64,000 nucleotides of DNA from Pseudomonadales bacterium (GTDB taxonomy: Bacteria; Pseudomonadota; Gammaproteobacteria; Pseudomonadales; UBA7239), in assembly GCA_046347205.1 (NCBI GenBank), contig JAXMGN010000001.1, forward strand, positions 750,035 to 814,034, read 5' to 3'. Below, in pieces: positions 46,423 through 62,200 of this stretch (its first letter is position 1; every line of letters begins with the position of its first letter). A model generated the notes under the pieces. The model did not search any database, was not told where the DNA came from, and saw only the letters and a program-made list of their open reading frames with translations. The translations under genes and the position numbers were made by a program.

Positions 46423-48348
46423 TTACAGCTCTGGGGTGTACACAATCGTCGCCATATAACCAAAACCTTCGGTGTTGTAGCGATCATTGAGTTGATATTG
46501 TTTATCCAACACATTGGTCAGTTTTAACTGCAATTTCACTTCTTTGCTGATGTTATAGGCGGCGCGCAGATTCACCAACCCATAACCGCCTTCGTCGATG
46601 GTGTTGCTGCGATCGCTGTAGCGTTTGGATTGCGCGATCAACTCGGTGCCAAATTCATAAGCGCCAAAGTTGCGGCTGATGTCGAGGTTCATGTTTTGGC
46701 GCGGGCGATTGATCAACACATTGCTGTGATCGGCGCCCTTGCCATCGTAGCGTGCATCAATGTAGCTGGCGTTGAAGGCGACATTCCACTCTTGAATGGC
46801 GGTGGTCAATTCAAATTCCACGCCTTGTATTTCGGCTTTGTCCACGTTGCTGGGTGTGTAAAACCACGAGCCTGGCGGCACTTCTGCCCACTCAATCAAA
46901 TCATCAATATTGTTTTCAAACACATTCACCGCCCAAGTGCCGAAAGCGGGCGTGCCTTTTAAGCCAATTTCATAGTTGACCGATTTTTCGGGTTTCAAAT
47001 TGGGATTGCCCGCAGACCACGGTGTAACCGGCCAGAACAAATCATTGAATGTTGGTGCTTTGAAAGCGGTACCGTAAGAAGCAACTACGCGTAAATCATC
47101 ACGCAGAGCGTAACCGTAGCTGACATTGCCGGTAGCGTTGTTGTTATATTGTTCGTTGTCATCATTGCGCAAACCGAGTACCAATTGGTGCTTGCCAATA
47201 TCCATTTGCTCTTGCATAAAAGTACCGAGATTGTCGCGTTCTTTTACGCGTTTGCCGTTGGCATCGGTGAGTATCGATGTGCTGGTAATTTCATCGTTGT
47301 AGTAATCTACGCCACCCGTAAACACATGGCTTACTGCGCCGGTTTGGAAAGTGAAATCATTTTGCCAACTGGCAGATTCACGACGCGTGTTGAATTTGCT
47401 GAAAGTGCTTTTGTTAAGATCATCAAAATCTTCCGAATTGTTTTTTGTTTCGCCCAATTGCACCGTGCTTTTCCACAGCTCGCTGATGACAGGCTGCTCC
47501 CATTTGAAACTGGTGGTCTCTAAACCGGAGCGTGTGTAAGGCTGCGTAGAAGGCAGAAAACCATTGTCGTATTCATTTTCGCTGTTGGATTTGTAATGCG
47601 ACAGTGAAAGATCGGTGCCGTTATCAAAACGATACCCGATAGACGCACTCGTGCTCGCATTGCGATAGGCGTCGCGATCAAAATTGGTGCCGCTGTCGTC
47701 AATTAAACTGTCGATGCCGTTGGTGTCGTAGTACGACGCAGAAGCGCTGCCACGAAAACCGTCTTTCGCGCCATTTACGCTCACCGTGGTTTGTTGCGTA
47801 CCGTTTTTACCAAATCCATAAGAAATTCGAGGATGCACACCCGCTTCACTGCCTTGCTTGGTAAAAATTTGAATCACGCCGCCGATGGCATCCGCGCCGT
47901 ACAAGCTAGAGCGCGGACCGCGCACAATTTCAATGCGTTCAATTTGATTAATATCCAAAGATTCCAGCGGATTGCTGCCAGACATCGCGCTGTTGATGCG
48001 TTGCCCATCGATCAAAAATAAAGTGTGGCTGGGATTGGTGCCGCGCAAGTACATGCTGCTGACCGAGCCGGGGCCGCCGGCATTGCTGAAACTGACGCTG
48101 GGGATGCGCTGCAACAATTCCGGCACGCTGTTGGCTTGAAATTGTTCGATATCTTCTTTGGTATACACCGTGGCGGGCGCGAGTGTTTTAGCCGTGGTTT
48201 CTTCAGTGCGCGTGGCTGTGACGAGCACGGTGTCCAGTGTGCTATCGGCGGTGTTGTTTGTGCTGTTGTCACCAGCCAGCGCAACTTGCGCAAGCGCAGC
48301 AGCCAAGGCGACGGGCAGCGTTTTTTTCAGGGAGTAAACAGTTTTCAT
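46423..48348 (-). CDS. btuB: TonB-dependent outer-membrane cobalamin receptor
   Basis: It has a signal peptide (MKTVYSLKKTLPVALAAALAQVALA), a TonB box (DTVLVTATR), plug-domain motifs, a C-terminal beta-barrel ending in ...YTPEL, and a cobalamin riboswitch in the leader. The track ORF extended to 48675 reads through the riboswitch and is rejected. Confidence 0.85.
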   Translation of the reverse strand: MKTVYSLKKTLPVALAAALAQVALAGDNSTNNTADSTLDTVLVTATRTEETTAKTLAPATVYTKEDIEQFQANSVPELLQRIPSVSFSNAGGPGSVSSMYLRGTNPSHTLFLIDGQRINSAMSGSNPLESLDINQIERIEIVRGPRSSLYGADAIGGVIQIFTKQGSEAGVHPRISYGFGKNGTQQTTVSVNGAKDGFRGSASASYYDTNGIDSLIDDSGTNFDRDAYRNASTSASIGYRFDNGTDLSLSHYKSNSENEYDNGFLPSTQPYTRSGLETTSFKWEQPVISELWKSTVQLGETKNNSEDFDDLNKSTFSKFNTRRESASWQNDFTFQTGAVSHVFTGGVDYYNDEITSTSILTDANGKRVKERDNLGTFMQEQMDIGKHQLVLGLRNDDNEQYNNNATGNVSYGYALRDDLRVVASYGTAFKAPTFNDLFWPVTPWSAGNPNLKPEKSVNYEIGLKGTPAFGTWAVNVFENNIDDLIEWAEVPPGSWFYTPSNVDKAEIQGVEFELTTAIQEWNVAFNASYIDARYDGKGADHSNVLINRPRQNMNLDISRNFGAYEFGTELIAQSKRYSDRSNTIDEGGYGLVNLRAAYNISKEVKLQLKLTNVLDKQYQLNDRYNTEGFGYMATIVYTPEL

Positions 48349-48419
48349 GTGAACCTCAATGCATTGAAAAGAGTGAATGCGTTTGAGGAGGGATACGGAA
48401 CAGGTGAGGCATCCTGCAC

Positions 48420-48655
48420 ACCAGCCGGATGAAGCCCTCCGCTCATCGTAGCTAACGGGAATTGGATTCCCTGGTGTTGCAGGTCGGTCTCCGGGCTCAC
48501 AGGTGGTTGAGATCAACCGCGTCAGCGCCTTCCCATGCATGCACAGTGGCGTATTGCTGACGTTTACCTGTTTACCGTTGCGGGGGCAGCGTTGGGATGA
48601 TCGCAAGCGATGGCACCAACTTCCCATTTCACCAGCGACCAGAAAGATCGCCGGA
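48420..48655 (-). promoter_or_regulatory. cobalamin (AdoCbl) riboswitch in the btuB leader
   Basis: The minus strand reads GGTGAAATGGGAAGTTGGTGCCA ... GCTGCCCCCGCAACGGTAA ... CCACTG ... GGGAAGG ... B12 box GAGCCCGGAGACCGACCTGC (48500-48479). Downstream, CCTCAA ... TTGAGG can sequester the SD (TGAGGT) 6 nt before the ATG at 48348. Confidence 0.85.
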
Positions 48656-48693
48656 ACCTGTAACAGCGCGCGCACTGTAGACGGGTTGGGCGC

Positions 48694-49683
48694 TTAGGGC
48701 AACCGCCGTGTAGCAAGAGCTACGGCCAGCCTCTCCCATTCCATTTCCTCAGCAGGCAAGCCAAACCGCAAGCTGGCGGGTTCAGAGTACAAACGAGTGA
48801 GAATGCCCAGTGTCGCCAAATGGTGATGGATAGCGGCAGCGGCGGGCGTTTGTATCCATTGAAACAGGGCGCAGCCACCAGCCGGAGCAAGACCGTTTTC
48901 AGTGAGCAACTGCGCCAAGCGCATGGATTGCTGCGGCAGCATTTCGCGCTGCTGCTGTTGCCATTCGCTGTCGCTCAGGGCGCGCTGAGCGGCGATGCGC
49001 GAAGGATGGCTGATGGGCCACGGTCCCAGTGTTTCGCGCAGTGCTGCCAGTGTTTTTTTTTCGGCAAACACAAAACCTACACGCGCACCGGCTAAGCCAA
49101 AAAATTTGCCCAGCGAACGCAACACTATCAAACCTGTTTGCCGTGCATCAGCAACCAAACTGTGTTGTGGGTCGCAATCGATAAACGCTTCATCGACAAT
49201 CAGCACGCCATTTTTTGCGATGAGTTGTGCATGCCATTGCAGTAACTGCGCGCGTGAAAAAACCGTACCGGTTGGGTTGTTGGGATTAACCAATAACAAA
49301 ACATCAAGTGTGTTGATATTTGCATCAATAGCCGTTTCATCCAGCGTAACAACCGTGTGGCCGGCGCGCTGCCAAGCGTGTGCATGTTCGTTATAGGTGG
49401 TTGCCAAAACACCGACGCGCTGCGGCGCAGTAAATAAAAAAGGCAAGGTTTGTATCGCCGCTTGCGAACCGGCCACCGGCAACAATAACTCAGCGCCGTA
49501 GTAACGCGCTGCAATCACTGGCAGCGCATCATCATCTTCTGGCAAGCGCTGCCACGTGGAGTAATGAATTTTTCCTACTGGGTAGGGCGATGGATTGAGT
49601 GCGGCAGACAAATCCAGCCAGTCTTCCAAGGGGATATGGTATTGCTGTACTGCTGCGCGCAGTTTTCCGCCGTGTTCAAGCAT
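48694..49683 (-). CDS. cobD: threonine-phosphate decarboxylase (Salmonella CobD / Pseudomonas CobC type)
   Basis: [11 protein letters not shown]...WLDLSAALNP, LLVNPNNPTG and SLGKFFGLAGARVG are class I/II aminotransferase-fold CobD blocks. The ATG is at 49683. Confidence 0.8.
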   Translation of the reverse strand: MLEHGGKLRAAVQQYHIPLEDWLDLSAALNPSPYPVGKIHYSTWQRLPEDDDALPVIAARYYGAELLLPVAGSQAAIQTLPFLFTAPQRVGVLATTYNEHAHAWQRAGHTVVTLDETAIDANINTLDVLLLVNPNNPTGTVFSRAQLLQWHAQLIAKNGVLIVDEAFIDCDPQHSLVADARQTGLIVLRSLGKFFGLAGARVGFVFAEKKTLAALRETLGPWPISHPSRIAAQRALSDSEWQQQQREMLPQQSMRLAQLLTENGLAPAGGCALFQWIQTPAAAAIHHHLATLGILTRLYSEPASLRFGLPAEEMEWERLAVALATRRLP

Positions 49684-50599
49684 AAAAAAAATAAAAAATA
49701 GCGTAGAGAAAAACCCACAGCCATGCGCTGTGCCGCACCAAACGCAAAGCACGTTCTATATCGAAAGCTGTCGGCGTTCTTCCTTCACCCATGAGTATTT
49801 TTTCTTTGACAATGCCGTGATAAACCGCTGCGCCGCCGAGCGTAATTTGCAATGCGCCGGCACCAGCTGTCATCACTACGCCGCCGTTAGGGCTTTCACA
49901 CAGTGACGCTTGTGCATGCCAACAATGCCATGCGCGTTGCGCGTTGCCGAGCAGAGAAAAAGTAATGGCGGTGAGGCGTGCGGGCAGCCAATTTAATACA
50001 TCGTCAAACTTGGCGGCAAAATAACCAAAGTGCAAATAGTGTGCGGTTTTATAGCCCCACATGGCATCCAATGTATTGGCAGCGCGCAACAGCACTGCGC
50101 CAGGGGCGCCAAAAACAAAAAACCAAAACAAGGTGGCGAATACCGCGTCATTGCCGTTTTCCAAAACAGATTCGATGGTCGCGCGCGTGATCTGTGTTTC
50201 GTTCATGGTTTGTGTGTCGCGGCTGACGATCATTGCCACCGCTTGTCGCGCTGCGGCGAGATCACCTGCAAATAATGGTGTGGCCACGGCGCGCGCGTGT
50301 TGGTGTAGGCTTTGTAAACCTAGGCAGCCGTACAGAATGATGATAGAAAAAATACTGCCGACCACCGGTAGCGCGCTGAGTACCCATGCCGCCAGCGTTA
50401 CAGGAATCATCAAAACCATCGCCGCCATAAAACCGCGCCATTGGCTTTTAACAAACGAACATTCCGCTGCGCCATAAAAAAAATGTTCTGCGCGCGTGAC
50501 GCACTGACCAAACAGCGCGAGTGGATGCCAGCGTTTAGGCTCGCCAAAAATTTTATCGAGCAGCAAGGCCAGCAGCGGCGCAAAAAAACTTAACGCCAT
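49676..50599 (-). CDS. cbiB: adenosylcobinamide-phosphate synthase
   Basis: [19 protein letters not shown] and the polytopic membrane pattern are typical of CbiB. Confidence 0.9.
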
Positions 50600-51342
50600 T
50601 TCAGTTTGTCGTGCAGTTTGACTACATCGCCGATGATAGTAAGTGTGGGCGCGGTGACATGTTCTGCGTGCACACGCTCGTTGATGGTGGCGAGTGTGGC
50701 AATCACCACGCGCTGCTGCGGCGTGGTGCCTTTTTCAATCAGCGCCACCGGTGTTTGTGGATCGCGCCCGTGTTGTATCAACTGCTCGCAAATTGCTTGC
50801 AAGCCGACCAAGCCCATATAAAAAACCAAAGTCTGCGTGGGGTCCATCAATTCAGGCCAGCGCAAATTCACCTCATCGTTTTTCAAATGACCGGTGATAA
50901 AGCGCACCGATTGCGCGTAATCGCGGTGTGTGAGTGGAATGCCGGCGTAAGCCGAGCAGCCACTGGCAGCGGTAATACCGGGCACCACTTCAAACGGAAT
51001 ATTGGCTGCGGCGAGCTCTTCAATTTCTTCGCCGCCGCGTCCAAAAATAAACGGATCGCCGCCTTTTAAGCGCAATACCTTGTGACCTGCGCGTGCTTCA
51101 TCCACCAACAGTTGATTGATATTGTCTTGCGGCACTGTGTGTTCGCTGCGCGCTTTGCCGACATAAATTTTGCGCAAAGATTCCGGCATCAGTGTCATGA
51201 TCGCCGGCGAAACAAGACGATCGTAAATCACCACATCACAAGTTTGCAGCAAGCGCAGCGCTTTTACCGTCAGCAAATCAGGATCGCCTGGACCTGCACC
51301 GACTAACCAAACTTTGCCGAGAGAGGGGAGTGTTTCGTTCAT
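50590..51342 (-). CDS. cobA: uroporphyrinogen-III C-methyltransferase (SUMT)
   Basis: [50 protein letters not shown] and VPGITAA are present. The ATG at 51342 gives an ATGA overlap with the ferredoxin stop. Confidence 0.9.
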
Positions 51343-51686
51343 GTGTTGCAACCGGAGCGGTGATAAATCAGTTCTTCAACAGGTGTGCCGCCAACAAAAT
51401 GTTCGCGAATAATGCGATCCATATTGGCGTCGGTGACATTGTAGTACCACACACCATCCGGCTGCACCGCCATCAGCGGTCCGCCTTTGCAGGTGGCGAA
51501 ACAGGAGGCGCGTGTGCGTTTCACGCGCAAAGCGCCTTTGTCGATGCCAGCCGCTTTGAATTTTTCGCCGAGGCTGTCGAACAGCATTTGCGATTCACCC
51601 TGCGTGCAGCGCGGGCCTGTGCACACCACCAAATGACGATGGTAGGCGCTCATGGATGGTTTTTCTCTGGCTATCAATTCACTCAT
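51339..51686 (-). CDS. thioredoxin-like [2Fe-2S] ferredoxin (CbiW-like)
   Basis: 115 aa with the Cys pattern VCTGPRC...SCFATC, typical of thioredoxin-like 2Fe-2S ferredoxins. It is embedded in the cbi operon. Confidence 0.7.
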
Positions 51687-51700
51687 AAAAATTGCTCAGT

Positions 51701-53065
51701 TTATTCGCTGTCATTTGCGTCGTCTGTGTCGTCATCTTCCGCAGACACGCTGTCTAATTGCAGTTGTGTTGCCAATTGCTCTGGCGAAAAATCGACGCTG
51801 TCGCAGGCGAGTAGTGAGCACAGCAATTGGCCTTTGTTGTCGATGCAATACAAGCCGTGAATTTTATTGTCTTTGGCAGCCAGCCACAGTTCAGTCACTT
51901 TTCCCCAGTGCAGATGCAAATGGAAAGTGTCGGTAATTAAATTTAACCACTCACCTTTTTGTGAAAAACGCGGTTGGCTAAACAACAATTCTGCAATCGC
52001 GCCGCCTTCCTGTCGCACCACGCCGCGCAATTTTCCCCAACTGGCGGCGAGTTCTAAAACTTTCATATCTTCTGTGCGCGCAATGTGCAGGCTGCGCCAC
52101 AAACATTCAGCTTCATCGTCATAGCGCGTGGCAACCGCCGAGAGCAATTCGCCCATCGGCATATCAAAATGCAGGGCGGCATCGCGCAGATTTTTTTGTG
52201 GGTTGTCGCGCAACCATTGGCGCGCGCAGGCTTTCCAACCCACCAAACCCATTTTTAGCGAGCGACCGGATTGTTCACCTGCATGCACAGCATCGCTGCC
52301 AATGGCCGTGGTGTATTTGTTGGCGTAGCCGCGCGGTGTCACCATCAGCCCTTCGCGCACAAAGGTATTGCTGTTGCCGATCAACACTGTAGTGAGCATG
52401 CCGATATCCGCTTCTGCCATTTTTTCCAGTGTGCTGAATTCAATATTTTGGCGGCGGCGATAAGCTGATTTCACCAAAGCCACCGGCGTTTCCGGTTTAC
52501 GGTACTGCAACAAAATGCGCTGTGCTTCCACAATTTGTTGCGTGCGTCTGCCACTTTTCGGGTTGTACAGTGCGATGACAAAATCTGCGCGCGCGGCTGC
52601 TTCAATGCGGCGCATGATTGTCGGCCACGGTGTTAATAAATCCGACAAAGAAATGGTGCAGGCATCGTGTGTCAGCGGTGCGCCAACCAATGCAGCGCAA
52701 CTGTTGATCGCCGAGCTGCCGGGCACGACCTCCACTTCTACGCCGTCGCCAGGTCTCCAACCGCTTTCTAATAACACTTCATAAGTGGGGCCGGCCATGC
52801 CGTATACACCGCTGTCGCCGGATGACACCAATGCCACATTTTTGCCTTCGCGCGCTCGCGCTAAGGCTTCGTGGCAGCGATCCAATTCTTCCGTCATGCC
52901 TTTGCGGATAACTTCTTTGCCGTCGATTAAATCCGCCACCAATTTAATGTAGGTGGTGTAGCCGATTACCGTGTCGGCTTGCGTGATGGCAGCGCGTGCG
53001 CGTGCCGTCATGTTTTCTTCGTTGCCGGGGCCGAGGCCCACAAGAAAAATTTTTCCAGTTTTCAT
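51701..53065 (-). CDS. cbiH: (cobalt-)precorrin-3B C17-methyltransferase CbiH/CobJ with C-terminal HemS/ChuX-like domain
   Basis: The N-terminal ~250 aa are a class III tetrapyrrole methylase (FLVGLGPGNEENMT, VSSGDSGVYGMAGP, VPGSSAINS, LSDLLTPW). The C-terminal ~190 aa contain KGEWLNLITDTFHLHLHWGKVTELW, which resembles the GWLNIFNPTFTLHL block of HemS/ChuS/ChuX. The protein ends in an acidic tail. Confidence 0.8.
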   Translation of the reverse strand: MKTGKIFLVGLGPGNEENMTARARAAITQADTVIGYTTYIKLVADLIDGKEVIRKGMTEELDRCHEALARAREGKNVALVSSGDSGVYGMAGPTYEVLLESGWRPGDGVEVEVVPGSSAINSCAALVGAPLTHDACTISLSDLLTPWPTIMRRIEAAARADFVIALYNPKSGRRTQQIVEAQRILLQYRKPETPVALVKSAYRRRQNIEFSTLEKMAEADIGMLTTVLIGNSNTFVREGLMVTPRGYANKYTTAIGSDAVHAGEQSGRSLKMGLVGWKACARQWLRDNPQKNLRDAALHFDMPMGELLSAVATRYDDEAECLWRSLHIARTEDMKVLELAASWGKLRGVVRQEGGAIAELLFSQPRFSQKGEWLNLITDTFHLHLHWGKVTELWLAAKDNKIHGLYCIDNKGQLLCSLLACDSVDFSPEQLATQLQLDSVSAEDDDTDDANDSE

Positions 53066-53457
53066 GTTGCTATCCTCGCGATGGATACCGTGACGTTTTT
53101 GCCGTCACTGCCTAAGAGTTTGTGTTTTTCAACCAATAAATGTGGCAGCGTGGTGTCTGCCGCCAACAGCGCCGCCGCTTCAGAAACTGCCGGTGTGCCC
53201 ATGTATTTGCGCACGGTTTCCGATGGGTTGGGCACAGCCACTTGTGCCAATTGTTCTGCGGTAAAAAACACCAGCATTTTGTTTTCTTGTTGCGCCAACT
53301 GTCGCATGCAGTGTTCATCATTTTTTTTATCGATGGTGGCAAACACGCGGATCTGCGCGCGCGTAGCCGCGATACTTTGCAGCGCGGCATCTAAAGCCGT
53401 TTCCAGTGTTTGTAACAGCGCGCCGCGATCACAGCCCAAACCCACCGCCAGATTCAT
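53062..53457 (-). CDS. cbiG: CbiG C-terminal domain protein (CobE-like)
   Basis: 131 aa with VGLGCDRG..., ATIDKK and SEAAALLAA, matching the CbiG_C/CobE pattern. ATGA overlaps occur on both sides. Confidence 0.7.
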   Translation of the reverse strand: MNLAVGLGCDRGALLQTLETALDAALQSIAATRAQIRVFATIDKKNDEHCMRQLAQQENKMLVFFTAEQLAQVAVPNPSETVRKYMGTPAVSEAAALLAADTTLPHLLVEKHKLLGSDGKNVTVSIARIAT

Positions 53458-54206
53458 GCGGCTTCCAGTGGTGGCCTATACACCACCAAACGCTCGTGCA
53501 GTTGTTGCCATAATTCATCGGAAATTGCGGCGTGCGTGACCCACAACACCGATTTGTAGCGCTGCAAATCCACGGCAGAAAAGTTGTCGAACAGATGGAT
53601 GTTGCTCGGCAGTGGCGTGGGGCGTATCCACCAATGCGGCGAACCGGCTTCCTGTACAAAGGCAATCAATTCACCGTTCACCACATCCGCCGACACGCGC
53701 GTGACATTAATTTTTGGCGCTTCCAATTTCCAACCGAGACCGCGCCCTAAAATATCCACGGGAATCGTTTTTCCCACATCGGATGCAGTTGTAAGAACCG
53801 CCGTGGCGCCGATCAAATCCGCCAGTTGTTCGGCGCAGGCATTCGCGCCACCAACGTGGCCGGATAACACCGGAATCACAAACTGTCCCGCGTCATCCAC
53901 CACGATCACGCCCGGATCTTCCTCTTTGGATTTCAGATACGGCGCAATCATGCGCACCACTACGCCCAAGGACACAAAAAAAACAATTTGATCGTAGTTA
54001 GCAAACAGCGGCGCAATTTCGTCTTTCATCGCCCCGCTGTAAATCGTGATTTTGTTCGTGGTCGCGCCTAATTCACTCGACACTTTTTCTGAAACTAAAA
54101 TCTCCGCGCGCGGCAAGGCAGGAGCCAGAGCTGCCACTTGTTTGGCGCCATGTTTGGTGATGGCGACCAAGGCCACGCGCACGGTATGTAAAGTGGGATC
54201 ACTCAT
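53454..54206 (-). CDS. cbiG: CbiG N-terminal/middle domain protein (cobalt-precorrin-5A hydrolase part)
   Basis: 250 aa with VALVAITKHGAKQ and IPVLSGHVGGAN, matching the CbiG_N and mid-domain pattern. Confidence 0.7.
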   Translation of the reverse strand: MSDPTLHTVRVALVAITKHGAKQVAALAPALPRAEILVSEKVSSELGATTNKITIYSGAMKDEIAPLFANYDQIVFFVSLGVVVRMIAPYLKSKEEDPGVIVVDDAGQFVIPVLSGHVGGANACAEQLADLIGATAVLTTASDVGKTIPVDILGRGLGWKLEAPKINVTRVSADVVNGELIAFVQEAGSPHWWIRPTPLPSNIHLFDNFSAVDLQRYKSVLWVTHAAISDELWQQLHERLVVYRPPLEAA

Positions 54207-54961
54207 GCGGATTTTTTCCTACAGCCTTTTTGAATTTCACCGCGCACACGCGCTGGGTTTTTAACTAGCATCAGCGATAGATAATTGACTTTCGTGCCGC
54301 GTAACTGGGTGATGTCATGCACGATACGCTCTTCATTCGCGCCCACTTTTTCAATGAATGTGCTGTGCGCCAGCAAGTGTTTGCGTTCCAGCAAATCGAC
54401 GATGTCGTCGAGGATTGGTTTTACTTTCATTAACACCAGTGTGTCGAAATCGGTCAGCAAATTTTCTACAAACGCCACGCCGTATGCAGCCGGCACGATG
54501 GCGATGGTGTCATCCACATCGGCCAGCGGTTGCCTGAGCGCGGCGCAAGCCGCGTTGTAGGCAGGTACACCTGGAATAGTGTCGATAACGATATGGTCTG
54601 CCAGACCGCGCAGCGTGCGCGCCAAGTGGCTAAAGGTAGAAAAAGTGGAGGCATCGCCTTCCACCAAAAACACCACATCGCGACCTGTGTTCAGCGTGGC
54701 TAAAACGCTGTTCGCTGCCTCCAACCAATAGCGCGCTAATTTTTCTGCGTCATGCGTCATGGGAAAAATAAGTGCCAGCGCATCCGCTGGCGTGGTGAGT
54801 TGCGCGCGTTGTGCAATGCCGAGCGCGTAACTGTCGCTGCCTTTTTTGCGTATCGGATACGCCCACTGCGCGCCACTGTGCAGTGCATCCCAAGCTTTGC
54901 GCGTGATGAGTTGCGGATCGCCAGGTCCGAGTGAAGCACCAATCAATTTGCCCTGTTTCAT
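54203..54961 (-). CDS. cbiL: (cobalt-)precorrin-2/factor II C20-methyltransferase
   Basis: LIGASLGPGDPQLIT, FLVEGDASTFSTF, IPGVPAYNA and VLMKV are present. The ATG at 54961 gives an ATGA overlap with the cbiET stop. Confidence 0.85.
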   Translation of the reverse strand: MKQGKLIGASLGPGDPQLITRKAWDALHSGAQWAYPIRKKGSDSYALGIAQRAQLTTPADALALIFPMTHDAEKLARYWLEAANSVLATLNTGRDVVFLVEGDASTFSTFSHLARTLRGLADHIVIDTIPGVPAYNAACAALRQPLADVDDTIAIVPAAYGVAFVENLLTDFDTLVLMKVKPILDDIVDLLERKHLLAHSTFIEKVGANEERIVHDITQLRGTKVNYLSLMLVKNPARVRGEIQKGCRKKSA

Positions 54962-56250
54962 GCGACCTCCGCTTTTTTCGCGCACACAATCCACACCGGA
55001 TTTTCAGCGGCGAGTCTGTGCATATCCAACACCGGTTTGCTGCGCGAACACTGCATCTGCGTGATGTCCCATTCAGCGCCTGACGCTTTTAACGCTGCAA
55101 TAGCGGCAGCGACATTTTCAAAAGTAACAAAGTTCATCACTAAACAGCCTTGCGGTTTTAAGCGTTGCAAGATAAGTGTGATGAGCGTAGCGAGTTCGCC
55201 GCCGGAGCCGCCGATAAATACCGCGTCTGGATCTGGCCAATTTTGCAAACCCTCCGGCGCTTTGGCGTGCAACAGCGTGTAGTTGTGCAAAGAAAAATAG
55301 TTGCGATTGGCGAGAGCGTTTTCACAATCGCCGGCGTTTTTTTCGACAGCGTACACATGACCTTGTGGGCACAGCCGCGCGGCTTCCACACCCACCGAAC
55401 CGGAACCGGCGCCGATGTCCCACACAACACTGTCACGTCGCAGTTGCATACGCGCCAGAGACACGGCGCGCACTTCGCGTTTGGTAATCAAACCTTTTTC
55501 TGGATAGCGTTGTTGAAACTGATCGTCGGCAATGCCAAAAATCGCTGCAGATTTTTTTATTGTATTGCGCCACAACAGCACCACATTGAGTTCGGCAAAG
55601 CGTCGCTGTGCGATGCTGACAATATCGAGATCGGTAATAATATTTTCGTCATCGCCACACAAGTTTTCAGCAATCGCCATCTGAAACTCGTGCTGCAAAT
55701 TGGCGGTCAGCAACAGACGCGCAATGCGATCTGGCGTATTTTCTGGGCTGGTGAGCACCGCGAGTTTGTCGTACTGCATTAAAGCGCGGCGCAGTGTGTA
55801 CAGACCGTGCTCTGGCGTGGCGCCTTCTTGCCATTCGCCAGCGTCTTTGCTGTGGATAGAAACAATGTGCAGGTCTTGCCAAGGCAGACCAACGCGCGCG
55901 CAAGCGAGTTGGATAGTTGAGGTGTTGGGCAAAATCTCCAGCGCATCAAAACACAGTTGCGCAGCGAGGTAATTGGCAATGCCGTGACACAGTGGGTCAC
56001 CGGTGGCGAGCACGGCGCAGCGCAAACCCTGCTGTTGTGCCGCGCGTATCCACTGTGGCACTTGTGTCATGTTTCCGGTGAGATCGTGCGTGGTGCAGTT
56101 GTCTTTCAGCACATTCGCAAACAAGTGCAAGGTGCGCGTGCCGCCGATAACCACATCCGCACAACGCAGTATTTTGTCGGCCTGCGCCGTTAAACCTTGC
56201 GTGCCGTTGTCCAGCACACCGATGACTGCACAGCGATGCATCGCGTTCAT
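54958..56250 (-). CDS. cbiE: fused precorrin-6Y C5,15-methyltransferase (decarboxylating), CbiE+CbiT (CobL-like)
   Basis: 430 aa. The N-terminal tetrapyrrole methylase (VLATGDPLCHG) is followed by a C-terminal SAM-MTase (WDIGAGSGSV). Confidence 0.85.
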   Translation of the reverse strand: MNAMHRCAVIGVLDNGTQGLTAQADKILRCADVVIGGTRTLHLFANVLKDNCTTHDLTGNMTQVPQWIRAAQQQGLRCAVLATGDPLCHGIANYLAAQLCFDALEILPNTSTIQLACARVGLPWQDLHIVSIHSKDAGEWQEGATPEHGLYTLRRALMQYDKLAVLTSPENTPDRIARLLLTANLQHEFQMAIAENLCGDDENIITDLDIVSIAQRRFAELNVVLLWRNTIKKSAAIFGIADDQFQQRYPEKGLITKREVRAVSLARMQLRRDSVVWDIGAGSGSVGVEAARLCPQGHVYAVEKNAGDCENALANRNYFSLHNYTLLHAKAPEGLQNWPDPDAVFIGGSGGELATLITLILQRLKPQGCLVMNFVTFENVAAAIAALKASGAEWDITQMQCSRSKPVLDMHRLAAENPVWIVCAKKAEVA

Positions 56251-57350
56251 TGAGAAACGGCCTCCGCAATTTTTTTACCGTCGAAATCACACACCAACAC
56301 GCGCAATTGAAATTTATTGGGGTAGCGTGCGAGCAGCGTGGCAATCACTTTTTCCGCCAACGCTAAATGAAATTCATAGGAAAGATGTAAGCTCGCCATT
56401 TGCTCACCGGCAAAGCGCGCGGTTTCGTTGTCGCGGATTGCCGCACACATAGCGTCCGGTGCGCCGAGCGACGCACAAATATCGGCCAGTAAGCCGGTAT
56501 CGACTTCTGCGCGCCCCGCGTGCGTAATGGTTTCGCCTTGCGCAATTTTGGTCAGTTTTCCCACCATGCCGCCGATCACCACTTCGCGTATTTTGCATTT
56601 CACGGCAGCGTCCAAGGCGTAGCGCAAAAAATCCCCCATTTGTACAAAACAGGTGTCGTTCAAATGCGGCAATTCCTGCATGGTGAACTTTTCTGTGCGC
56701 CCGCCCGTGGTGAGCACCACGGTATCATTGCCGGTTTTGGCAGCGACTTGTATGCCCTGCACCACGCTGGCGCGAAACGCGCTGGTGGAATACGGTTTGA
56801 CGATGCCGGTGGTGCCGAGTATAGAAATGCCACCCAAAATACCGAGGCGCGCATTGGTGGTTTTTTTTGCCATCTCTTCGCCGCCCGGCACAGAAATCGT
56901 GACCGAGAGGCCATGATGTTCTAACAATTCGCCAGCGACTTCGCGCAAATTTTCTGCAATATTTTTGCGTGGCACGGGATTGATAGCAGGGCCGCCCACT
57001 TCCAAGCCCAAACCGGGTTTCGTGACAACGCCCACACCGGCGCCGTTGTGAAATTCAATCCGCTCCGCTGCGTCTGGCAGTATTTTTAGTTGCACCGTCA
57101 TGTGCGCACCGTGCGTGGCATCGGGGTCATCGCCCGCGTCTTTGACTACCACTGCGTGCGCTTCAGTGGCTGAACAACTGCTGTCGTGAATTGCAAACAC
57201 CACACGCTGCCCATTCGCCAACAAGCATTCCACTTGCGAAGGCACTGCGCCGTGCAACAAGCCGAGCGCGGCTGCGCGCGCCGCTGCCGCCGAGCAGGCG
57301 CCGGTAGAAAAACCGGTGCGCAAACGCTTTTTGGCGGGGATTTTTTCCAT
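56247..57350 (-). CDS. cbiD: cobalt-precorrin-5B (C1)-methyltransferase
   Basis: LRTGFSTGACSAAAARAA, GILGGISILGTTGIV.P and 367 aa are typical of CbiD. Confidence 0.9.
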   Translation of the reverse strand: MEKIPAKKRLRTGFSTGACSAAAARAAALGLLHGAVPSQVECLLANGQRVVFAIHDSSCSATEAHAVVVKDAGDDPDATHGAHMTVQLKILPDAAERIEFHNGAGVGVVTKPGLGLEVGGPAINPVPRKNIAENLREVAGELLEHHGLSVTISVPGGEEMAKKTTNARLGILGGISILGTTGIVKPYSTSAFRASVVQGIQVAAKTGNDTVVLTTGGRTEKFTMQELPHLNDTCFVQMGDFLRYALDAAVKCKIREVVIGGMVGKLTKIAQGETITHAGRAEVDTGLLADICASLGAPDAMCAAIRDNETARFAGEQMASLHLSYEFHLALAEKVIATLLARYPNKFQLRVLVCDFDGKKIAEAVSQ

Positions 57351-57356
57351 CGCAAT

Positions 57357-58049
57357 TTACGACTGCGCTCGCTGTGCATTTTCTGCCAAGGCCAAGATCG
57401 CGTGTATTGCGGCCACCACCAGTGTTGAACCGCCTTTGCGCCCGTGCGTAATAATCCACGGCACGGTATTGCACTCTGCCAACAACTCTTTCGATTCGGC
57501 GGCAGAAACAAAGCCCACGGGCATGCCGATGATGAGTGCAGGTTTTGCGTTCTCTTCGCGCACCAAACGCAATATTTCTAGCAGTGCGGTGGGCGCGTTG
57601 CCAATACCGATAATTGCACCATCCAGCAATCCCAGTTTATGTGCTTTGCGCATGGCGAATACGGCGCGCGTGGAATCAGCAGCTTTTGCATCGTTAATCA
57701 CATCGTCATCGCTGATAAATTGATGCAGAGTCACGCCGAAGTGCGCCAAGCGCGGTTTGGATACGCCGACACAAATCATTTCCACATCAGCAATCAATGC
57801 CTTGCCCTGCAAAATAGCGTTGACACCGGCCGCAATGGCTTCTGGATGAAATTGCGTCAGGCCATTAAATTCAAAATCAGCCGTGGCATGAATCATGCGC
57901 CGCACCACCGGCCACTGCTCGGCCGTGTACGCGTGTTCCCCCGCTTCTTGATCGACCACCGCAAACGATTCGTGCTCAATTTGCTGACCGAGGCGTGTCA
58001 TTTGTTCGGTGGCGATATTGCTGTGCGATGTAGAGTTAGATGTGTTCAT
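57357..58049 (-). CDS. cbiC: precorrin-8X methylmutase
   Basis: RMIHATADF, GIGNAPTAL, IIGMPVGFV and GGSTLVVAAIHA are present. Confidence 0.9.
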   Translation of the reverse strand: MNTSNSTSHSNIATEQMTRLGQQIEHESFAVVDQEAGEHAYTAEQWPVVRRMIHATADFEFNGLTQFHPEAIAAGVNAILQGKALIADVEMICVGVSKPRLAHFGVTLHQFISDDDVINDAKAADSTRAVFAMRKAHKLGLLDGAIIGIGNAPTALLEILRLVREENAKPALIIGMPVGFVSAAESKELLAECNTVPWIITHGRKGGSTLVVAAIHAILALAENAQRAQS

Positions 58050-58819
58050 GCGATTTCTTCCTCCATAGCCGTTGCACGTTGATTCAACAGGGAAAAAATT
58101 TCCGGTTCAAAACCAAAATAAGTGCCGCAATGGAAACGCACTTGCGGATATTGCTGTTGTAAATGTTCGACTTGGCGCTGGATACGCTCTACCAAAACGC
58201 CGGTAAACAAATAATACGGCAGGATGGCAATTTGCATCATGCCAAGTTGAACGTGTCGCTGCACGACGCGCTCTAAACGCGGGTAAGTGATGCCGGTGAA
58301 AGCAATATCCACCAAGGTGTGTTGTGCATTTCGGTTGAAACAATCTTCCTGTAACCAGCGCGCCATTTTTGCCACTTCGCCGTTAGCGTGCATATCGGAT
58401 GAGCCGCGCCCTAACAAAATCACGCCGGTGGTGGATGGGTCTGGCATGTCTAAGTCTTTCATGCCCGCACTCAAGCGGCGGCGCAAAATTTGCAGAATAT
58501 CTTCACAAGCCCCTAAATGCGGTGCATACACAAATTCACACTGTGGAAATTTCGCGCGTGCATGATCGATATATTCAGGAATTTCTTCTTTTACATGACC
58601 GGCAGCATTGAGGATCAGTGGAATCACGATCACGCGCTGTGCCTGCTTTCCCACTTTTTCCAGCGTGTTGTCTAACAGCGCATCAGAAAACTCGATAAAA
58701 CAGAGTTCGATGTTCCACCGCGGATTACTCTCGCGCCACTGCTGTGTAAATTGTTCAATTTCCTGGTTGCCTGCAATATTGCGCGAACCGTGACCGACTA
58801 ACAGGATGGTGCTGTTCAT
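58046..58819 (-). CDS. cbiX: sirohydrochlorin cobaltochelatase, CbiX (two-domain form)
   Basis: There are two CbiX repeats beginning ILLVGHGSRN and VILLGRGSSD. The ATG at 58819 gives an ATGA overlap with the cbiF stop, so the track start at 58969 is rejected. Confidence 0.8.
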   Translation of the reverse strand: MNSTILLVGHGSRNIAGNQEIEQFTQQWRESNPRWNIELCFIEFSDALLDNTLEKVGKQAQRVIVIPLILNAAGHVKEEIPEYIDHARAKFPQCEFVYAPHLGACEDILQILRRRLSAGMKDLDMPDPSTTGVILLGRGSSDMHANGEVAKMARWLQEDCFNRNAQHTLVDIAFTGITYPRLERVVQRHVQLGMMQIAILPYYLFTGVLVERIQRQVEHLQQQYPQVRFHCGTYFGFEPEIFSLLNQRATAMEEEIA

Positions 58820-59610
58820 GGCGTGGAATCCTCGATGGACGCTTTGCGAAAGCGGTGGGTAAAACTGGCATCGTACAATTTGGATTTTTTGAGTTCTGGC
58901 CAGTGGCGTGCACCGAGTGTGGGGCTGGCAACGATCATCGCCTGTGCGGTAATGCCTTCGGTAATGCAACGCTCGCGAATATCCGCCAGTGTGCCGCGCA
59001 CAATTTTTTCCTCATTAGGCCAACTGGCTTTTTGCACCACCAAAATGGGCGATTGATCGCTCCAACCCGCCATCAACAATTCTTTGCGAATGGTTTTTAA
59101 CAGCGTGATGGAGAGATACATGCAGAGTGTGCTGTGATGCGCGGCGAGCTCGGCTAGCGATTCGCCCTCCGGCATCGGTGTGCGCCCTTCCACGCGCGTA
59201 AAAATGACTGTTTGTGTCACTTCCGGCAAAGTCAAACTTTCGCAGGCCGCCGCCATGGATGCCATGGCCGATGTCACGCCCGGCACTACACACACCGGAA
59301 TGTTTGCCGCATCCAAAGGTTGCACCATTTCGATTAATGCGCCGTACAAACCGGGGTCGCCGGTTTGCAAACGAATAACGGTTTCATGTTGTTGCGCGCG
59401 TGAAATTAACCACTCCACAATTTGCGTCAGCGTCATGTCTTTGGAGTCGGCAATTTCACAAGTGGCGGGCGCCCACTGCGTCGCCGCTTCCGACACCAGC
59501 GAACCGGCATATAAAATGGCACCGGCTTTGGCAATTAAATCGCGCCCTTTCAATGTTAATAACTGTGGATCGCCGGGGCCTGCGCCCACAAAAAATACGG
59601 TGCCGTTCAT
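58816..59610 (-). CDS. cbiF: (cobalt-)precorrin-4 C11-methyltransferase
   Basis: [29 protein letters not shown] and VPGVTSA are present in 264 aa. Confidence 0.9.
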   Translation of the reverse strand: MNGTVFFVGAGPGDPQLLTLKGRDLIAKAGAILYAGSLVSEAATQWAPATCEIADSKDMTLTQIVEWLISRAQQHETVIRLQTGDPGLYGALIEMVQPLDAANIPVCVVPGVTSAMASMAAACESLTLPEVTQTVIFTRVEGRTPMPEGESLAELAAHHSTLCMYLSITLLKTIRKELLMAGWSDQSPILVVQKASWPNEEKIVRGTLADIRERCITEGITAQAMIVASPTLGARHWPELKKSKLYDASFTHRFRKASIEDSTP

Positions 59611-60902
59611 GCGCCAAATAGCCTCGCAATAGCGGTGGGGTTGGATGGAAAATACATATGCAGATACGAAGCGAGTAATTTTTTATCGCGATACACGGGT
59701 TCTGCTTTGCCGCGCTTGCCTTGCGTCATCGTCAATGGCATTAGCGGTGACGTGGTTTGTGAGTGATGGAAAGTGTGACCGCGCACTTCGCCTTCCGGTA
59801 ATGTCACACTGTGCAAGCCAAGATTGGCGAGTTTGTTTTGCATCACGGCATCACCGCGCAGCAAGCCACACATCGCAGCCTGCTGGCCGTTTTTATCCGT
59901 CAATGTATCCAACAAATACAACAAGCCGCCGCATTCTGCGAGCAGTGGTTTGTGCTCTGCGTGATGTTTTTCAATAGACTGTTTTAGCGAGACATTGTTG
60001 GCTAAAACATCAAGATGCAATTCTGGATAGCCGCCAGGGAGATACACCGCATCGCAATCTGGCAGTGCTTTATCGTGCAGCGGTGAAAAATAAATCAGTT
60101 TCGCACCGAGCGCCGTTAAACAATCAGTGTTGGCGCGATACAAAAAGGAAAATGCGGCATCGCGTGCAATAGCAACGCGTTTTCCCGCCAATAATTGTTC
60201 TGGCGCGTGCTGTGGTTCGGCAGGATAAAAAACTACCGGCGGAGGTAATTCAGCAGAAGATGTTTTGGCGATGGCATCTGCCATGCTATCCAAACGCATA
60301 TCGAGATCGGCCAGTTCTTGCGCTTGCACCAAACCCAAGTGGCGCGCAGGCAAAGCGGCATTTTCTTCTTGCCGAAATACTGCGCCGTACCACGTCATGC
60401 TTGCGGGCAAGCTGTTGCGCAGCAGTTCCGCGTGACTGTCGCTGGCAACGCGGTTTGCCAACACGCCAGCAAAGGGCAGCCCCGCACGATACGTCGCCAA
60501 ACCGTGTGCCAGCGCACCGAAAGTTTGCGCCATCGCGGTGGCATTGATCACGGTCAGCACGGGAATGCCAAAACGCTGCGCGAGATCGGCGCTGGAGGGC
60601 TCGCCGTCAAACAAACCCATCACGCCTTCGATCAGAATCAAATCCGCTTCAGCCGCAGCGCGGTACAGCAGCTCGCGGCAGTGCGCCTCACCGCCCATCC
60701 ACAAATCCAGTTGGTACACCGGTTGCCCGCAAGCGCGCTCGTGGATCATCGGGTCGAGAAAGTCGGGGCCACACTTGAACACGCGCACACGCCGACCGGC
60801 ACGTGTATGCAAACGCGCCAGTGCGGCGGTAATGGTCGTCTTTCCCTGACCCGATGCAGGCGCCGTGATGAACAGCGCCGGACAGTGGCGAGGTGCGTTC
60901 AT
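59607..60902 (-). CDS. cbiA: cobyrinic acid a,c-diamide synthase
   Basis: ITAPASGQGKTT, GPDFLDP and the GATase-like C-terminus with ECGGLLYL are present. I chose the ATG at 60902 (MNAPRHCPALFI), 1 nt after the cbtA stop. Confidence 0.9.
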   Translation of the reverse strand: MNAPRHCPALFITAPASGQGKTTITAALARLHTRAGRRVRVFKCGPDFLDPMIHERACGQPVYQLDLWMGGEAHCRELLYRAAAEADLILIEGVMGLFDGEPSSADLAQRFGIPVLTVINATAMAQTFGALAHGLATYRAGLPFAGVLANRVASDSHAELLRNSLPASMTWYGAVFRQEENAALPARHLGLVQAQELADLDMRLDSMADAIAKTSSAELPPPVVFYPAEPQHAPEQLLAGKRVAIARDAAFSFLYRANTDCLTALGAKLIYFSPLHDKALPDCDAVYLPGGYPELHLDVLANNVSLKQSIEKHHAEHKPLLAECGGLLYLLDTLTDKNGQQAAMCGLLRGDAVMQNKLANLGLHSVTLPEGEVRGHTFHHSQTTSPLMPLTMTQGKRGKAEPVYRDKKLLASYLHMYFPSNPTAIARLFGA

Positions 60903-60903
60903 G

Positions 60904-61959: not shown

Positions 61960-62200
61960 ATGCCAAAACCGTGTGCGGCAGGCCGGTCTCCGGGCTCATG
62001 AGTGCGTAGCATCCTGTACGCTGACGGGCACCTTCCCATGTCGCGCCAGTGGCGCAGTACACAGTGGTTATTGCCGGTCTCTACTCATTTACCGTTGCGG
62101 GGGCAGCGCTGGAATTGTTGCTCGTAGAGCAAACGCACCAGCTTCCCGTTTCACCCTCGGAGCAGAAGCTCGTCGGGCACCTGAAGCAGGGCTGCACTGT
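61960..62200 (-). promoter_or_regulatory. cobalamin (AdoCbl) riboswitch in the leader of the cbtB-cbtA-cbi operon
   Basis: The minus strand reads GGGTGAAACGGGAAGCTGGTGCG ... CAGCGCTGCCCCCGCAACGGTAA ... CCACTG ... GGGAAGG ... B12 box GAGCCCGGAGACCGGCCTGC (62000-61977). It has the same architecture as the btuB element. Confidence 0.85.

Follow-up and report, generated by a model that had tools for sequence, protein, structure and literature searches.

The gene at positions 51701..53065 of the analysed window (a DNA stretch of 64,000 nucleotides; this and all other features given below lie on the reverse strand) encodes a CbiH/CobJ C17-methyltransferase fused to a C-terminal ChuX/HemS-like domain, as indicated by the list of open reading frames, by matches to TIGR01466 and PF00590 and by comparison with homologues. 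The open reading frame starts with ATG and comprises 454 amino acids and a stop codon. Residues 6-248 match TIGR01466 with E=2.6e-98 (328.3 bits, cut-off 246.35), and a Foldseek search with the full-length model returned TT0207 (2zvb, E=3.3e-28, 54% identity) and CobJ (3nut) as top structures for the methylase half, which forms a class III tetrapyrrole methylase domain of the CbiH/CobJ type (residues 1-248, 52322..53065). Curated-model score, fold and operon context classify the protein as a CbiH/CobJ C17-methyltransferase, with predicted enzymatic activity. Beyond the methylase, the polypeptide continues for ca. 200 amino acids. An earlier note on this DNA, concerned with 51701-52310 (residues 252-454 and the stop codon), placed the end of the methylase at about residue 250, in agreement with the end of the TIGR01466 match at 248 and the location of TPRGYANKY at residues 243-251. 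The block KGEWLNLITDTFHLHLHWGKVTELWLAAKDNKIHGLYCIDNKGQLL and the acidic tail EDDDTDDANDSE that it quoted are both present in the open reading frame, and the ChuS block that it gave was accurate, the sequence in E. coli O157 ChuS being KGWLNIFNPTFTLHLLEESIAEAWVTRKPTSDGYVTSLELFAHDG.

The same note proposed that the extension is a HemS/ChuX-like domain, and at the level of the protein family this question is settled in its favour: residues 278-436 (51758..52234) constitute a domain of the ChuX/HutX/HemS superfamily, on the evidence of profile comparison with the PDB, an AF2 model, Foldseek and Pfam searches of homologues. The window sequence by itself remained below the Pfam thresholds, with 19.1 bits for ChuX_HutX (cut-off 25, E=1.2e-3) and 16.3 bits for HemS (cut-off 24). 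As a single query, the extension retrieved one homologue in a word-indexed search, gave E values of at least 0.22 with phmmer against the PDB and matched nothing in NCBIfam, and a two-sequence profile used in an exhaustive HMMER search gave 32 matches, mostly fragments, none of them stand-alone ChuX/HemS proteins. Orthologues with 57-62% overall identity to the window protein exceed the gathering thresholds of both Pfam families, PF06228 and PF05171 (39.8 and 27.2 bits for P0053; 40.0 and 33.9 bits for P0115), as do family members from named genomes. A PDB search with a profile built from 41 family sequences returned members of the HemS/ChuS/ChuX superfamily only, with HemS as the best match (E=2.6e-9) and ChuS at 4.5e-7. 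Since Foldseek with the full-length model listed only methylases among its best 50 matches, a model of the C-terminal part alone was needed. This AF2 model (pTM 0.82, core pLDDT 94-98) shows three helices, followed by an antiparallel sheet of ca. 9 strands with one interleaved helix, and a C-terminal helix. All 27 of its Foldseek matches at E<=1e-3 belong to the superfamily (ChuX, HutX, PhuS, HemS, ChuS); those to ChuX and HutX have E values of 5.5e-8 to 1.3e-7 and TM scores, normalised to the target, of 0.64-0.69. The profile and structural match that the note had left for verification is thus significant. Its statement that the extension differs from the Fe-S domain of CbiH60 also holds, and a CbiH60-like domain was rejected, as no Fe-S family was detected in residues 252-454 and the fold is ChuX-like. 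None of the invariant or nearly invariant positions of the extension is a cysteine.

The CbiH plus ChuX-like architecture recurs in an identical 454-residue protein (P0002) and in more than 118 homologues with lengths of 438-495 amino acids. The survey of the fusion outside the window, suggested earlier, located it in Methylococcales and Pseudomonadales-type Gammaproteobacteria; this spread is not a systematic census, the scan of genome contigs having used over-specific peptide patterns that gave 2 loci only. Named carriers are Methylococcus, Methylomonas, Methylotuvimicrobium and Spongiibacter, all of which are aerobes. Across the loci, leaving out the near-identical L002, identities are 41-63% for the ChuX-like domain, 74-92% for the methylase and 72-78% for the neighbouring ferredoxin; lower conservation is expected of a binding module that accompanies catalytic and redox cores. 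Contig L001 has one gene call for each of the two parts, as would be seen if separate cbiH and chuX-like genes had been joined in the window by a frameshift or misassembly. The break on L001 lies, however, in a run of 10 A at ca. 1x coverage, where one A fewer restores the frame, and the more than 118 independent sequences, complete genomes included, encode a single fused open reading frame, which rules out such an artefact with near certainty.

The fusion gene is part of a cob operon headed by a cobalamin riboswitch (61964..62199, RF00174, 93.8 bits), with the gene order cbtA-cobB-cbiF-cbiX-cbiC-cbiD-cbiET-cbiL-cbiG-cbiH~chuX-fdx-cobA-cbiB-cobD. The presence of CbiX, CbiL, CbiG and CbiD identifies the early cobalt insertion type. 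Because the gene is located in this riboswitch-controlled operon and not among chu, hut, hem, phu or shu genes for the uptake or use of haem, the extension is a structural member of the HemS/ChuX superfamily rather than a functional ChuX/HutX orthologue. CbiG is split: its N-terminal and middle domains form a protein of 250 amino acids (53454..54206, PF11760 and PF11761), and the C-terminal domain, which is CobE-like, is encoded by a separate gene for 131 amino acids (53062..53457, PF01890, E=5.5e-32). The stop codon of the latter gene and the beginning of the fusion gene overlap, and this CbiG_C gene occupies the same position in all sampled loci; in P0147, CbiG_C is itself fused to CbiH~ChuX-like. 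Directly downstream of the fusion lies a gene for a thioredoxin-like [2Fe-2S] ferredoxin of 115 amino acids (51339..51686), assigned by a PF01257 score of 25.8 bits (cut-off 24.8) and by an alignment of four loci in which C22, C27, C62 and C66 are invariant. This ferredoxin, a basic protein with a pI of 8.7, follows the fusion gene in 13/13 contexts, sampled from either the fusion or the ferredoxin side, and is an obligate downstream partner. The same 13 contexts all contain the complete module of CbiG_N, CobE-like CbiG_C, CbiH~ChuX-like and ferredoxin, and the genes beyond the ferredoxin vary.

Methylase and ChuX-like domain are connected by a linker that is variable in length among the aligned homologues and predicted to be disordered (residues 249-262, 52280..52321), with AlphaFold pLDDT values below 50 at residues 247-266; the full-length model (pTM 0.61) docks the two domains without confidence. 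The linker is followed by an invariant junction motif, GEQSGRSLKMGLVGWKACAR (residues 263-282, 52220..52279), in which G263, E264, G267, S269, G273, L274, G276 and W277 are each found in 118/118 homologues. Residues 263-277 are the best-conserved part of the whole extension and precede the start of ChuX, the ChuX alignment beginning at profile position 33. A marginal profile match of the motif to the glutamate mutase GlmE (E=0.39) was dismissed as chance. At the other end, the acidic tail LDSVSAEDDDTDDANDSE (residues 437-454, 51704..51757) is common to the family according to the homologue alignment and usually ends with [ST]-D-E; the last 24 residues have a pI of 4.05.

Alignment with HemS, ChuS and ChuX (HemS pocket residues from PMC11773379) suggests that R347, R351, E359, H382 and H384 line the pocket that relatives use for haem. 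The first four are invariant in the family, with H382 present in 118/118 and H384 in 116/118 sequences. The two histidines, candidate axial ligands for cobalt, belong to the strand FHLHLHW (residues 381-387, 51905..51925), which is homologous to the HemS/ChuS strand that carries the distal arginine (HemS R102, ChuS R100) and the Phe gate. H384 corresponds to His98 of ChuX and His277 of ChuS, and the invariant R351 occupies the column of ChuX His65 and ChuS Arg67; against the N-terminal halves of HemS and ChuS, two alignments differ by two residues, which leaves the register ambiguous. The roles of ChuX His65 and His98 were reportedly described by Suits et al. in 2009. For the axial histidine of the two-domain proteins (HemS H196, ChuS H193) no equivalent could be mapped by alignment; the nearest candidate is H299 (His in 69/118, Tyr in 41/118).

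Similar to ChuX and HutX, the single-domain cytoplasmic haem carriers of PF06228 (PDB 2ovi, 6u9j, 5exv), the domain has a core of ca. 160 residues with the same fold that aligns end to end by profile, retains ChuX His98 as H384, and is joined to a SAM-dependent tetrapyrrole-modifying enzyme that it presumably serves, just as the carriers serve such an enzyme encoded beside them (chuW-chuX). Unlike these carriers, with which it shares just 13-17% sequence identity, it has an invariant arginine in place of His65, begins with an extra junction motif that is invariant and ends in an acidic tail, forms one polypeptide with the enzyme that is its presumed client, and is encoded in a B12-biosynthesis operon instead of a Fur-regulated haem-uptake locus. 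Its ligand is likely to be a cobalt isobacteriochlorin or corrinoid rather than haem. The two-domain haem chaperones and degraders HemS, ChuS, PhuS and ShuS (PF05171) provide the best sequence-profile matches; their C-terminal halves share the block WLN..F.LHL...W with the domain, and their N-terminal halves share the R..E motif (HemS R69...E76). These proteins act in a different pathway and contain a tandem duplication, whereas here a single copy is present, which may pair via the methylase dimer, and an H196/H193-type ligand is not demonstrably present. A further parallel is CbiH60 of Bacillus (Priestia) megaterium, also a CbiH with a C-terminal addition linked to the redox chemistry of ring contraction. 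According to what Moore et al. reportedly found in 2013, CbiH60 carries a [4Fe-4S] domain as its extension, and the reaction requires Fe-S and DTT. In the family described here the extension is cysteine-poor and ChuX-like, and the Fe-S protein is supplied in trans, with a [2Fe-2S] cluster on a separate thioredoxin-like protein of 115 amino acids from the adjacent gene. The concept of a non-catalytic holder of labile B12 intermediates is shared with CobE and the C-terminal domain of CbiG, although their fold is unrelated to that of the ChuX-like domain; Deery et al. are said to have proposed CobE as a carrier of pathway intermediates in 2012.

To the reading of the extension as a fused tetrapyrrole carrier with a ferredoxin partner, replacing the Fe-S domain of Bacillus CbiH60, we give about an even chance. 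It builds on the observed domain identities, the fold, the conservation of pocket positions and the obligate linkage of the genes; we infer which ligand is bound, that it is handed on, that electrons are transferred and that the ChuX-like domains dimerise on the methylase dimer. The earlier note had suggested that the domain could hold or hand over cobalt-precorrins, or act as a sensor; the wide spread of the fusion and its constant ferredoxin neighbour, neither of which it noticed, sharpen these ideas. Related proteins offer a precedent, as ChuX, ChuS and HutX, which bind haem in a 1:1 ratio, pass it to the SAM-dependent tetrapyrrole-modifying enzymes ChuW and HutW, or to HutZ (PMC10404700, PMC12670364). 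CbiH would act as the cobalt-factor III/cobalt-precorrin-3 C17-methyltransferase that performs oxygen-independent ring contraction, with one ChuX/HutX-type domain attached through a flexible linker. In its haem-type pocket, this domain most likely binds the cobalt tetrapyrrole that CbiH uses and/or the one that it produces; it would take the intermediate from CbiL, present it to the methylase and protect it against oxygen and water until it passes to CbiF and CbiG. In the named carriers of the fusion, which are aerobes, labile intermediates would probably need such protection. The adjacent [2Fe-2S] ferredoxin would donate the electrons that determine the redox state of macrocycle or cobalt, a role like that ascribed to the Fe-S domain of B. 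megaterium CbiH60. The carrier model gives no account of the conservation of residues 263-277. A more specific version, which we put forward only tentatively, is that the ChuX-like domain and the ferredoxin form a dedicated redox-carrier module that binds cobalt-factor III through the histidine pair and reduces or redox-poises it for oxygen-independent ring contraction. A haem-trafficking fold would then have been recruited into corrin biosynthesis in place of the non-homologous [4Fe-4S] domain of CbiH60; being more tolerant of oxygen, it would allow obligate aerobes such as methanotrophs to use the 'anaerobic' B12 pathway under air, and the module might also cover the CbiJ reduction.

The junction motif and the acidic [ST]DE terminus, both conserved and lacking a ChuX counterpart, would be explained if the domain had lost tetrapyrrole binding and had become a ligand-free scaffold, a platform for dimerisation or for docking of ferredoxin, CbiG_C/CobE or CbiF, with the conserved residues and acidic tail as interface. 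The charge difference between tail and ferredoxin, the absence of a demonstrably conserved H196-type ligand and the fast divergence of the domain fit this view. However, R347, R351, E359, H382 and H384 fall on the pocket columns and strand face of HemS/ChuS/ChuX rather than on an obvious outer surface, and tetrapyrrole binding is common to all characterised proteins with this fold (PMC11773379, PMC10404700, PMC12670364), which makes a scaffold unlikely. Haem binding by the relatives would also fit a regulatory role, put forward in the earlier note as sensing of haem or corrinoid levels. Haem or the end-product corrinoid would be bound and CbiH tuned allosterically, coordinating the haem, sirohaem and B12 branches; titles cited in PMC12670364 report regulation of ChuS by ChuX and a regulatory role for PhuS. 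We consider a sensor improbable, as the branch-point enzymes are CobA/SUMT and the chelatase and not CbiH, the riboswitch already provides end-product control of the operon, and the constant linkage to the ferredoxin would be left unexplained.

Slightly more improbable still is a catalytic function, in which the ChuX-like domain with ferredoxin or NAD(P)H reduces a bound cobalt-corrinoid, either from cobalt-factor III to cobalt-precorrin-3 or even in the cobalt-precorrin-6A step of CbiJ. In HemS, NADH is placed such that its hydride can pass to the bound haem (PMC11773379), the ferredoxin linkage is obligate, and CbiJ/CobK was not found in a non-exhaustive search of the 64-kb window (operon and flanks) or in the 15-kb Methylococcus and Methylotuvimicrobium loci. 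Against this reductase stand the position of the HemS Phe gate, which is not conserved (N, D, H or P at residue 386), and the lack of a nucleotide-binding signature in domain-profile searches of the protein; CbiJ may moreover be encoded elsewhere in the genome than in the inspected regions.

In oxygen-independent B12 synthesis, ring contraction is the step with the most difficult chemistry, and to our knowledge Bacillus CbiH60 is the only enzyme in which its redox requirement has been studied. The fusion with its fixed ferredoxin would represent a second, widespread solution, used by methanotrophs and marine or soil Gammaproteobacteria, and would add cofactor biosynthesis to haem scavenging as a use of the HemS/ChuX fold. 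As the proteins should express easily, the holding, reduction and handing-on of labile cobalt-precorrins in aerobic cells becomes testable, with possible use in engineering B12 production in aerobic hosts. Our literature search retrieved no paper describing a CbiH with HemS or ChuX; judged mostly by titles and the openings of abstracts, the papers that mention ChuX together with cobalamin do not concern the fusion. The architecture is visible in automated annotation and described in none of the papers searched, and the labelling of the proteins as just 'precorrin-3B C17-methyltransferase' points to a systematic annotation gap. New here is the fixed module that pairs the fusion with a split CbiG and a [2Fe-2S] ferredoxin.

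The ORF at 51701..53065 on the minus strand encodes a polypeptide of 454 amino acids (CbiH~ChuX-like), in which a CbiH/CobJ C17-methyltransferase is followed by a C-terminal extension. The methylase part is recognised by the CbiH/CobJ equivalog-domain model TIGR01466 (residues 6-248; 328 bits, cut-off 246, E=2.6e-98) and by Pfam TP_methylase. The earlier note had assigned a HemS/ChuX-like domain to 51701-52310, which corresponds to residues 252-454. The strings it cited are all found in the ORF (TPRGYANKY, KGEWLNLITDTFHLHLHWGKV... and the tail EDDDTDDANDSE), and the ChuS block it gave is accurate, E. coli O157:H7 ChuS (annotated Sakai genome) reading KGWLNIFNPTFTLHLLEESIAEAWV...SLELFAHDG.

By itself, the window extension remains below the Pfam thresholds, with 19.1 bits for ChuX_HutX (cut-off 25, E=1.2e-3) and 16.3 bits for HemS (cut-off 24); its PDB matches are non-significant, the entries being PhuS, ChuS and a HemS-like DUF. 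A full-length homologue search gave 7403 matches, and the best 120 of these (413-495 amino acids) all possess the extension (120/120), most of them with precomputed matches to PF06228 and PF05171. When the searches were re-run, the homologues P0053 (Methylococcus), P0115 (Methylotuvimicrobium buryatense) and P0055 exceeded both gathering thresholds. A profile built from 41 diverse C-terminal regions of the fusion family and searched against PDB sequences retrieved 13 sequences at E<0.05, 13/13 from the HemS/ChuS/PhuS/ChuX superfamily (HemS 2.6e-9, ChuS 4.5e-7, 3fm2 2e-6, 2hqv 5e-5, 2ph0 1.5e-4). The AlphaFold2 model of the extension, a check that the earlier note had proposed, has a pTM of 0.82, and within the 208-residue construct its pLDDT stays at 94-98 from residue 31 to residue 190. 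Foldseek matched this predicted fold to the same superfamily only (27/27 matches at E<=1e-3), including ChuX 6u9j and 2ovi, HutX 5exv, 2ph0, PhuS, HemS, ChuS, 2hqv, 3fm2 and 3na2. TM-scores against single-domain proteins were 0.64-0.69, and the next match was LolA with 0.23. With the homologue, profile and fold tests, three independent tests at the family level, in agreement, the extension is, as judged from profiles and a modelled structure, a genuine, divergent, single-copy ChuX/HutX-type domain, and the proposed HemS/ChuX likeness is borne out. Profile searches detected no Fe-S family in the extension, and cysteine is absent from its invariant and near-invariant columns across the family. 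This rules out an Fe-S domain of the kind found in CbiH60 of Bacillus megaterium, in keeping with the earlier note. We regard the protein as a bona fide CbiH that belongs to neither the plain nor the CbiH60 type.

More than 118 homologues share the architecture, as does P0002, a protein identical to that of the window; among the carriers are complete genomes of Methylococcus, Methylomonas, Methylotuvimicrobium, Methylomicrobium and Ca. Methylospira. In the nearest genomes, which are uncultured Pseudomonadales MAGs, the extension is 95% and 61% identical. On the metagenome contig L001 (~1x coverage) the fusion is called as two genes, the break lying at a run of ten A residues (L001 1380-1400); removal of one A restores the frame RDNP-KKN-LRDAALHFDMP, and the split is most likely a sequencing error. 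The restored frame and the more than 118 fused homologues refute an assembly artefact. Stand-alone "ChuX-like" calls beside cbiH in other low-coverage assemblies may be artefacts of the type seen in L001. In one relative, P0147, CbiG_C is joined to CbiH and the ChuX-like domain as a triple fusion.

The methylase domain (residues 1-248) is connected by a variable linker (249-262, predicted disordered) to a junction motif, G-E-x-x-G-R-S-L-x-M-G-L-x-G-W (residues 263-277; 52235-52279, minus strand). No other part of the extension is as strongly conserved as this motif, eight positions of which are kept in 118/118 same-architecture homologues; it lies N-terminal to the start of ChuX homology, outside the homologous core, and is modelled at low confidence. 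The ChuX-like core covers about residues 278-436 and is followed by an acidic C-terminal tail (51704-51757, minus strand). The last residue is D or E in 86/118 family members, most often as [ST]-D-E-COOH, and the mean net charge over the final 20 residues is about -4. Within the core F300, A310, R347, R351, E359 and H382 are invariant, and position 384 is His in 116/118.

Pocket columns were identified by aligning the family profile to the ChuX and ChuS sequences and to HemS. R351 occupies the column of ChuX His65, HemS R69 and ChuS R67; E359 that of a conserved Glu (ChuX E72, HemS E76, ChuS E74); and H384 that of ChuX His98 and ChuS His277. Both ChuX His65 and His98 reportedly take part in haem binding (work attributed to Suits et al. 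2009). The homologue of the FHLHLHW strand in the N-terminal half bears the distal haem residue (HemS R102, ChuS R100) and the Phe gate (F104). These residues have been described as lining the haem pocket (PMC11773379). Against the N-terminal halves, two registers that differ by two residues are possible, since HemS pairs H384 with R102 and ChuS pairs H382 with R100; in either register H382 and H384 are on the pocket-facing side. For the axial His of the two-domain proteins (H196/H193) no equivalent could be mapped in the family alignment, the nearest column, H299, being His in 69 and Tyr in 41 of 118 sequences.

The fusion gene lies within a long minus-strand cob operon (48694-61659) headed by a cobalamin riboswitch (61964-62199). 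The gene order is cbtA, cobB/cbiA, cbiF, cbiX, cbiC, cbiD, cbiET, cbiL, cbiG_N, cbiG_C, cbiH~chuX-like, ferredoxin, cobA, cbiB, cobD, and the operon encodes the early-cobalt-insertion, oxygen-independent B12 route. CbiG is split into CbiG_N plus middle domain (53454-54206, minus strand) and the CobE-like CbiG_C (53062-53457, minus strand), as in 13/13 contexts. Downstream of the fusion is a thioredoxin-like [2Fe-2S] ferredoxin of 115 amino acids (51339-51686, minus strand; pI 8.7) with four invariant cysteines and a PF01257 score of 25.8 bits (cut-off 24.8); at least 734 proteins belong to its family at E<=1e-8. The ferredoxin directly follows the fusion gene in the window and every related locus (L001-L005, L007-L016), often with an 8-nt overlap. 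It is directly 3' in 10/10 loci reached from the fusion side, window counted, including L010, where it is uncalled as a gene and was found by tblastn. In the reverse direction, three ferredoxin homologues chosen irrespective of CbiH all (3/3) lie in the order CbiG_N, CbiG_C, CbiH~ChuX-like, ferredoxin. Genes further downstream vary (cobA, cobO, a nitroreductase-family gene, cysG, unrelated genes), so that the linkage is specific to the four-gene module. Across these loci, with the near-identical L002 (96-99% in all three parts) left aside, the methylase is 74-92% and the ferredoxin 72-78% identical; the ChuX-like domain, at 41-63%, is less conserved than either.

By structure, the domain belongs to the HemS/ChuX superfamily. 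Its different operon, its identity of only 13-17%, the Arg in place of ChuX His65 and the extra motifs show that it is no functional ChuX/HutX orthologue. Whereas CbiH60 has its own [4Fe-4S] domain, the present protein has a ChuX-like domain instead and the Fe-S protein is encoded separately. The architecture is visible in precomputed Pfam annotations, and every source names the proteins only "precorrin-3B C17-methyltransferase". Full-text literature searches found no paper joining CbiH with HemS or ChuX, and the fusion is not the subject of any paper found in the ChuX-plus-cobalamin literature. Both parts belong to known families, and the role proposed here for the fusion is a putative one; the recruitment of a haem-carrier fold with a fixed ferredoxin partnership would be noteworthy for the B12 field and is directly testable.

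In the cytoplasm, ChuX, HutX and ChuS bind tetrapyrroles 1:1 and hand them over to enzymes that modify tetrapyrroles, among them the radical-SAM methyltransferases ChuW and HutW (PMC10404700, PMC12670364). By analogy, the fused domain may hold the cobalt-tetrapyrrole substrate or product of CbiH, with H382 and H384 as candidate cobalt ligands; it would supply the methylase and protect the intermediate up to the CbiF and CbiG steps. Because the ferredoxin partner is obligate, a redox step probably belongs to the task of the module. For CbiH60, the conversion of cobalt-factor III to cobalt-precorrin-4 reportedly depends on a reductant and on an intact [4Fe-4S] domain (attributed to Moore et al. 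2013, JBC 288:297). In the fusion system the [2Fe-2S] ferredoxin would provide the cluster in trans, and its expected better tolerance of oxygen would be in line with the aerobic life of the named carriers. Class III methylases are known as dimers, and a ChuX dimer looks like the two-lobed ChuS monomer; within a CbiH dimer, the two ChuX-like domains could thus pair in a HemS-like manner.

Alternatively, the domain could be a ligand-free docking scaffold; this is unlikely, even if it would account for the otherwise unexplained junction motif and for the opposite character of the acidic tail (pI 4.05) and the basic ferredoxin, on which the tail may, speculatively, dock. That it acts as a haem or corrinoid sensor is quite improbable, since CbiH is not a branch-point enzyme and end-product control is already given by the riboswitch. 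A catalytic reductase module, which we regard as very improbable, draws on the ability of HemS to position NADH for hydride transfer to haem (PMC11773379). It would also fit the finding that no cobalt-precorrin-6A reductase (CbiJ/CobK) was found in the operon, its flanks, ten other ORFs of 220-310 amino acids in the window or the 15-kb loci of Methylococcus and Methylotuvimicrobium (L004 and L005); however, that gene may simply reside elsewhere in these genomes.

A second cobalamin riboswitch (48465-48676, minus strand; 104.6 bits) precedes btuB, and the listed ORF of 750 amino acids for the TonB-dependent B12 receptor BtuB (46423-48675, minus strand) begins within it and matches its family from residue 123, so that translation probably starts a good way further downstream. 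Likewise, the CbiX-type chelatase ORF (58046-58969, minus strand), listed with a TTG start, shares 154 nt with the end of cbiF (58816-59610, minus strand); because the chelatase match begins at about residue 46-55 and orthologues have 275-283 amino acids, its real start is probably later. Genes for a CobO/BtuR corrinoid adenosyltransferase (62233-62832, minus strand) and a RIO-domain kinase (62835-63683, minus strand) lie just upstream of the operon riboswitch, outside its control.
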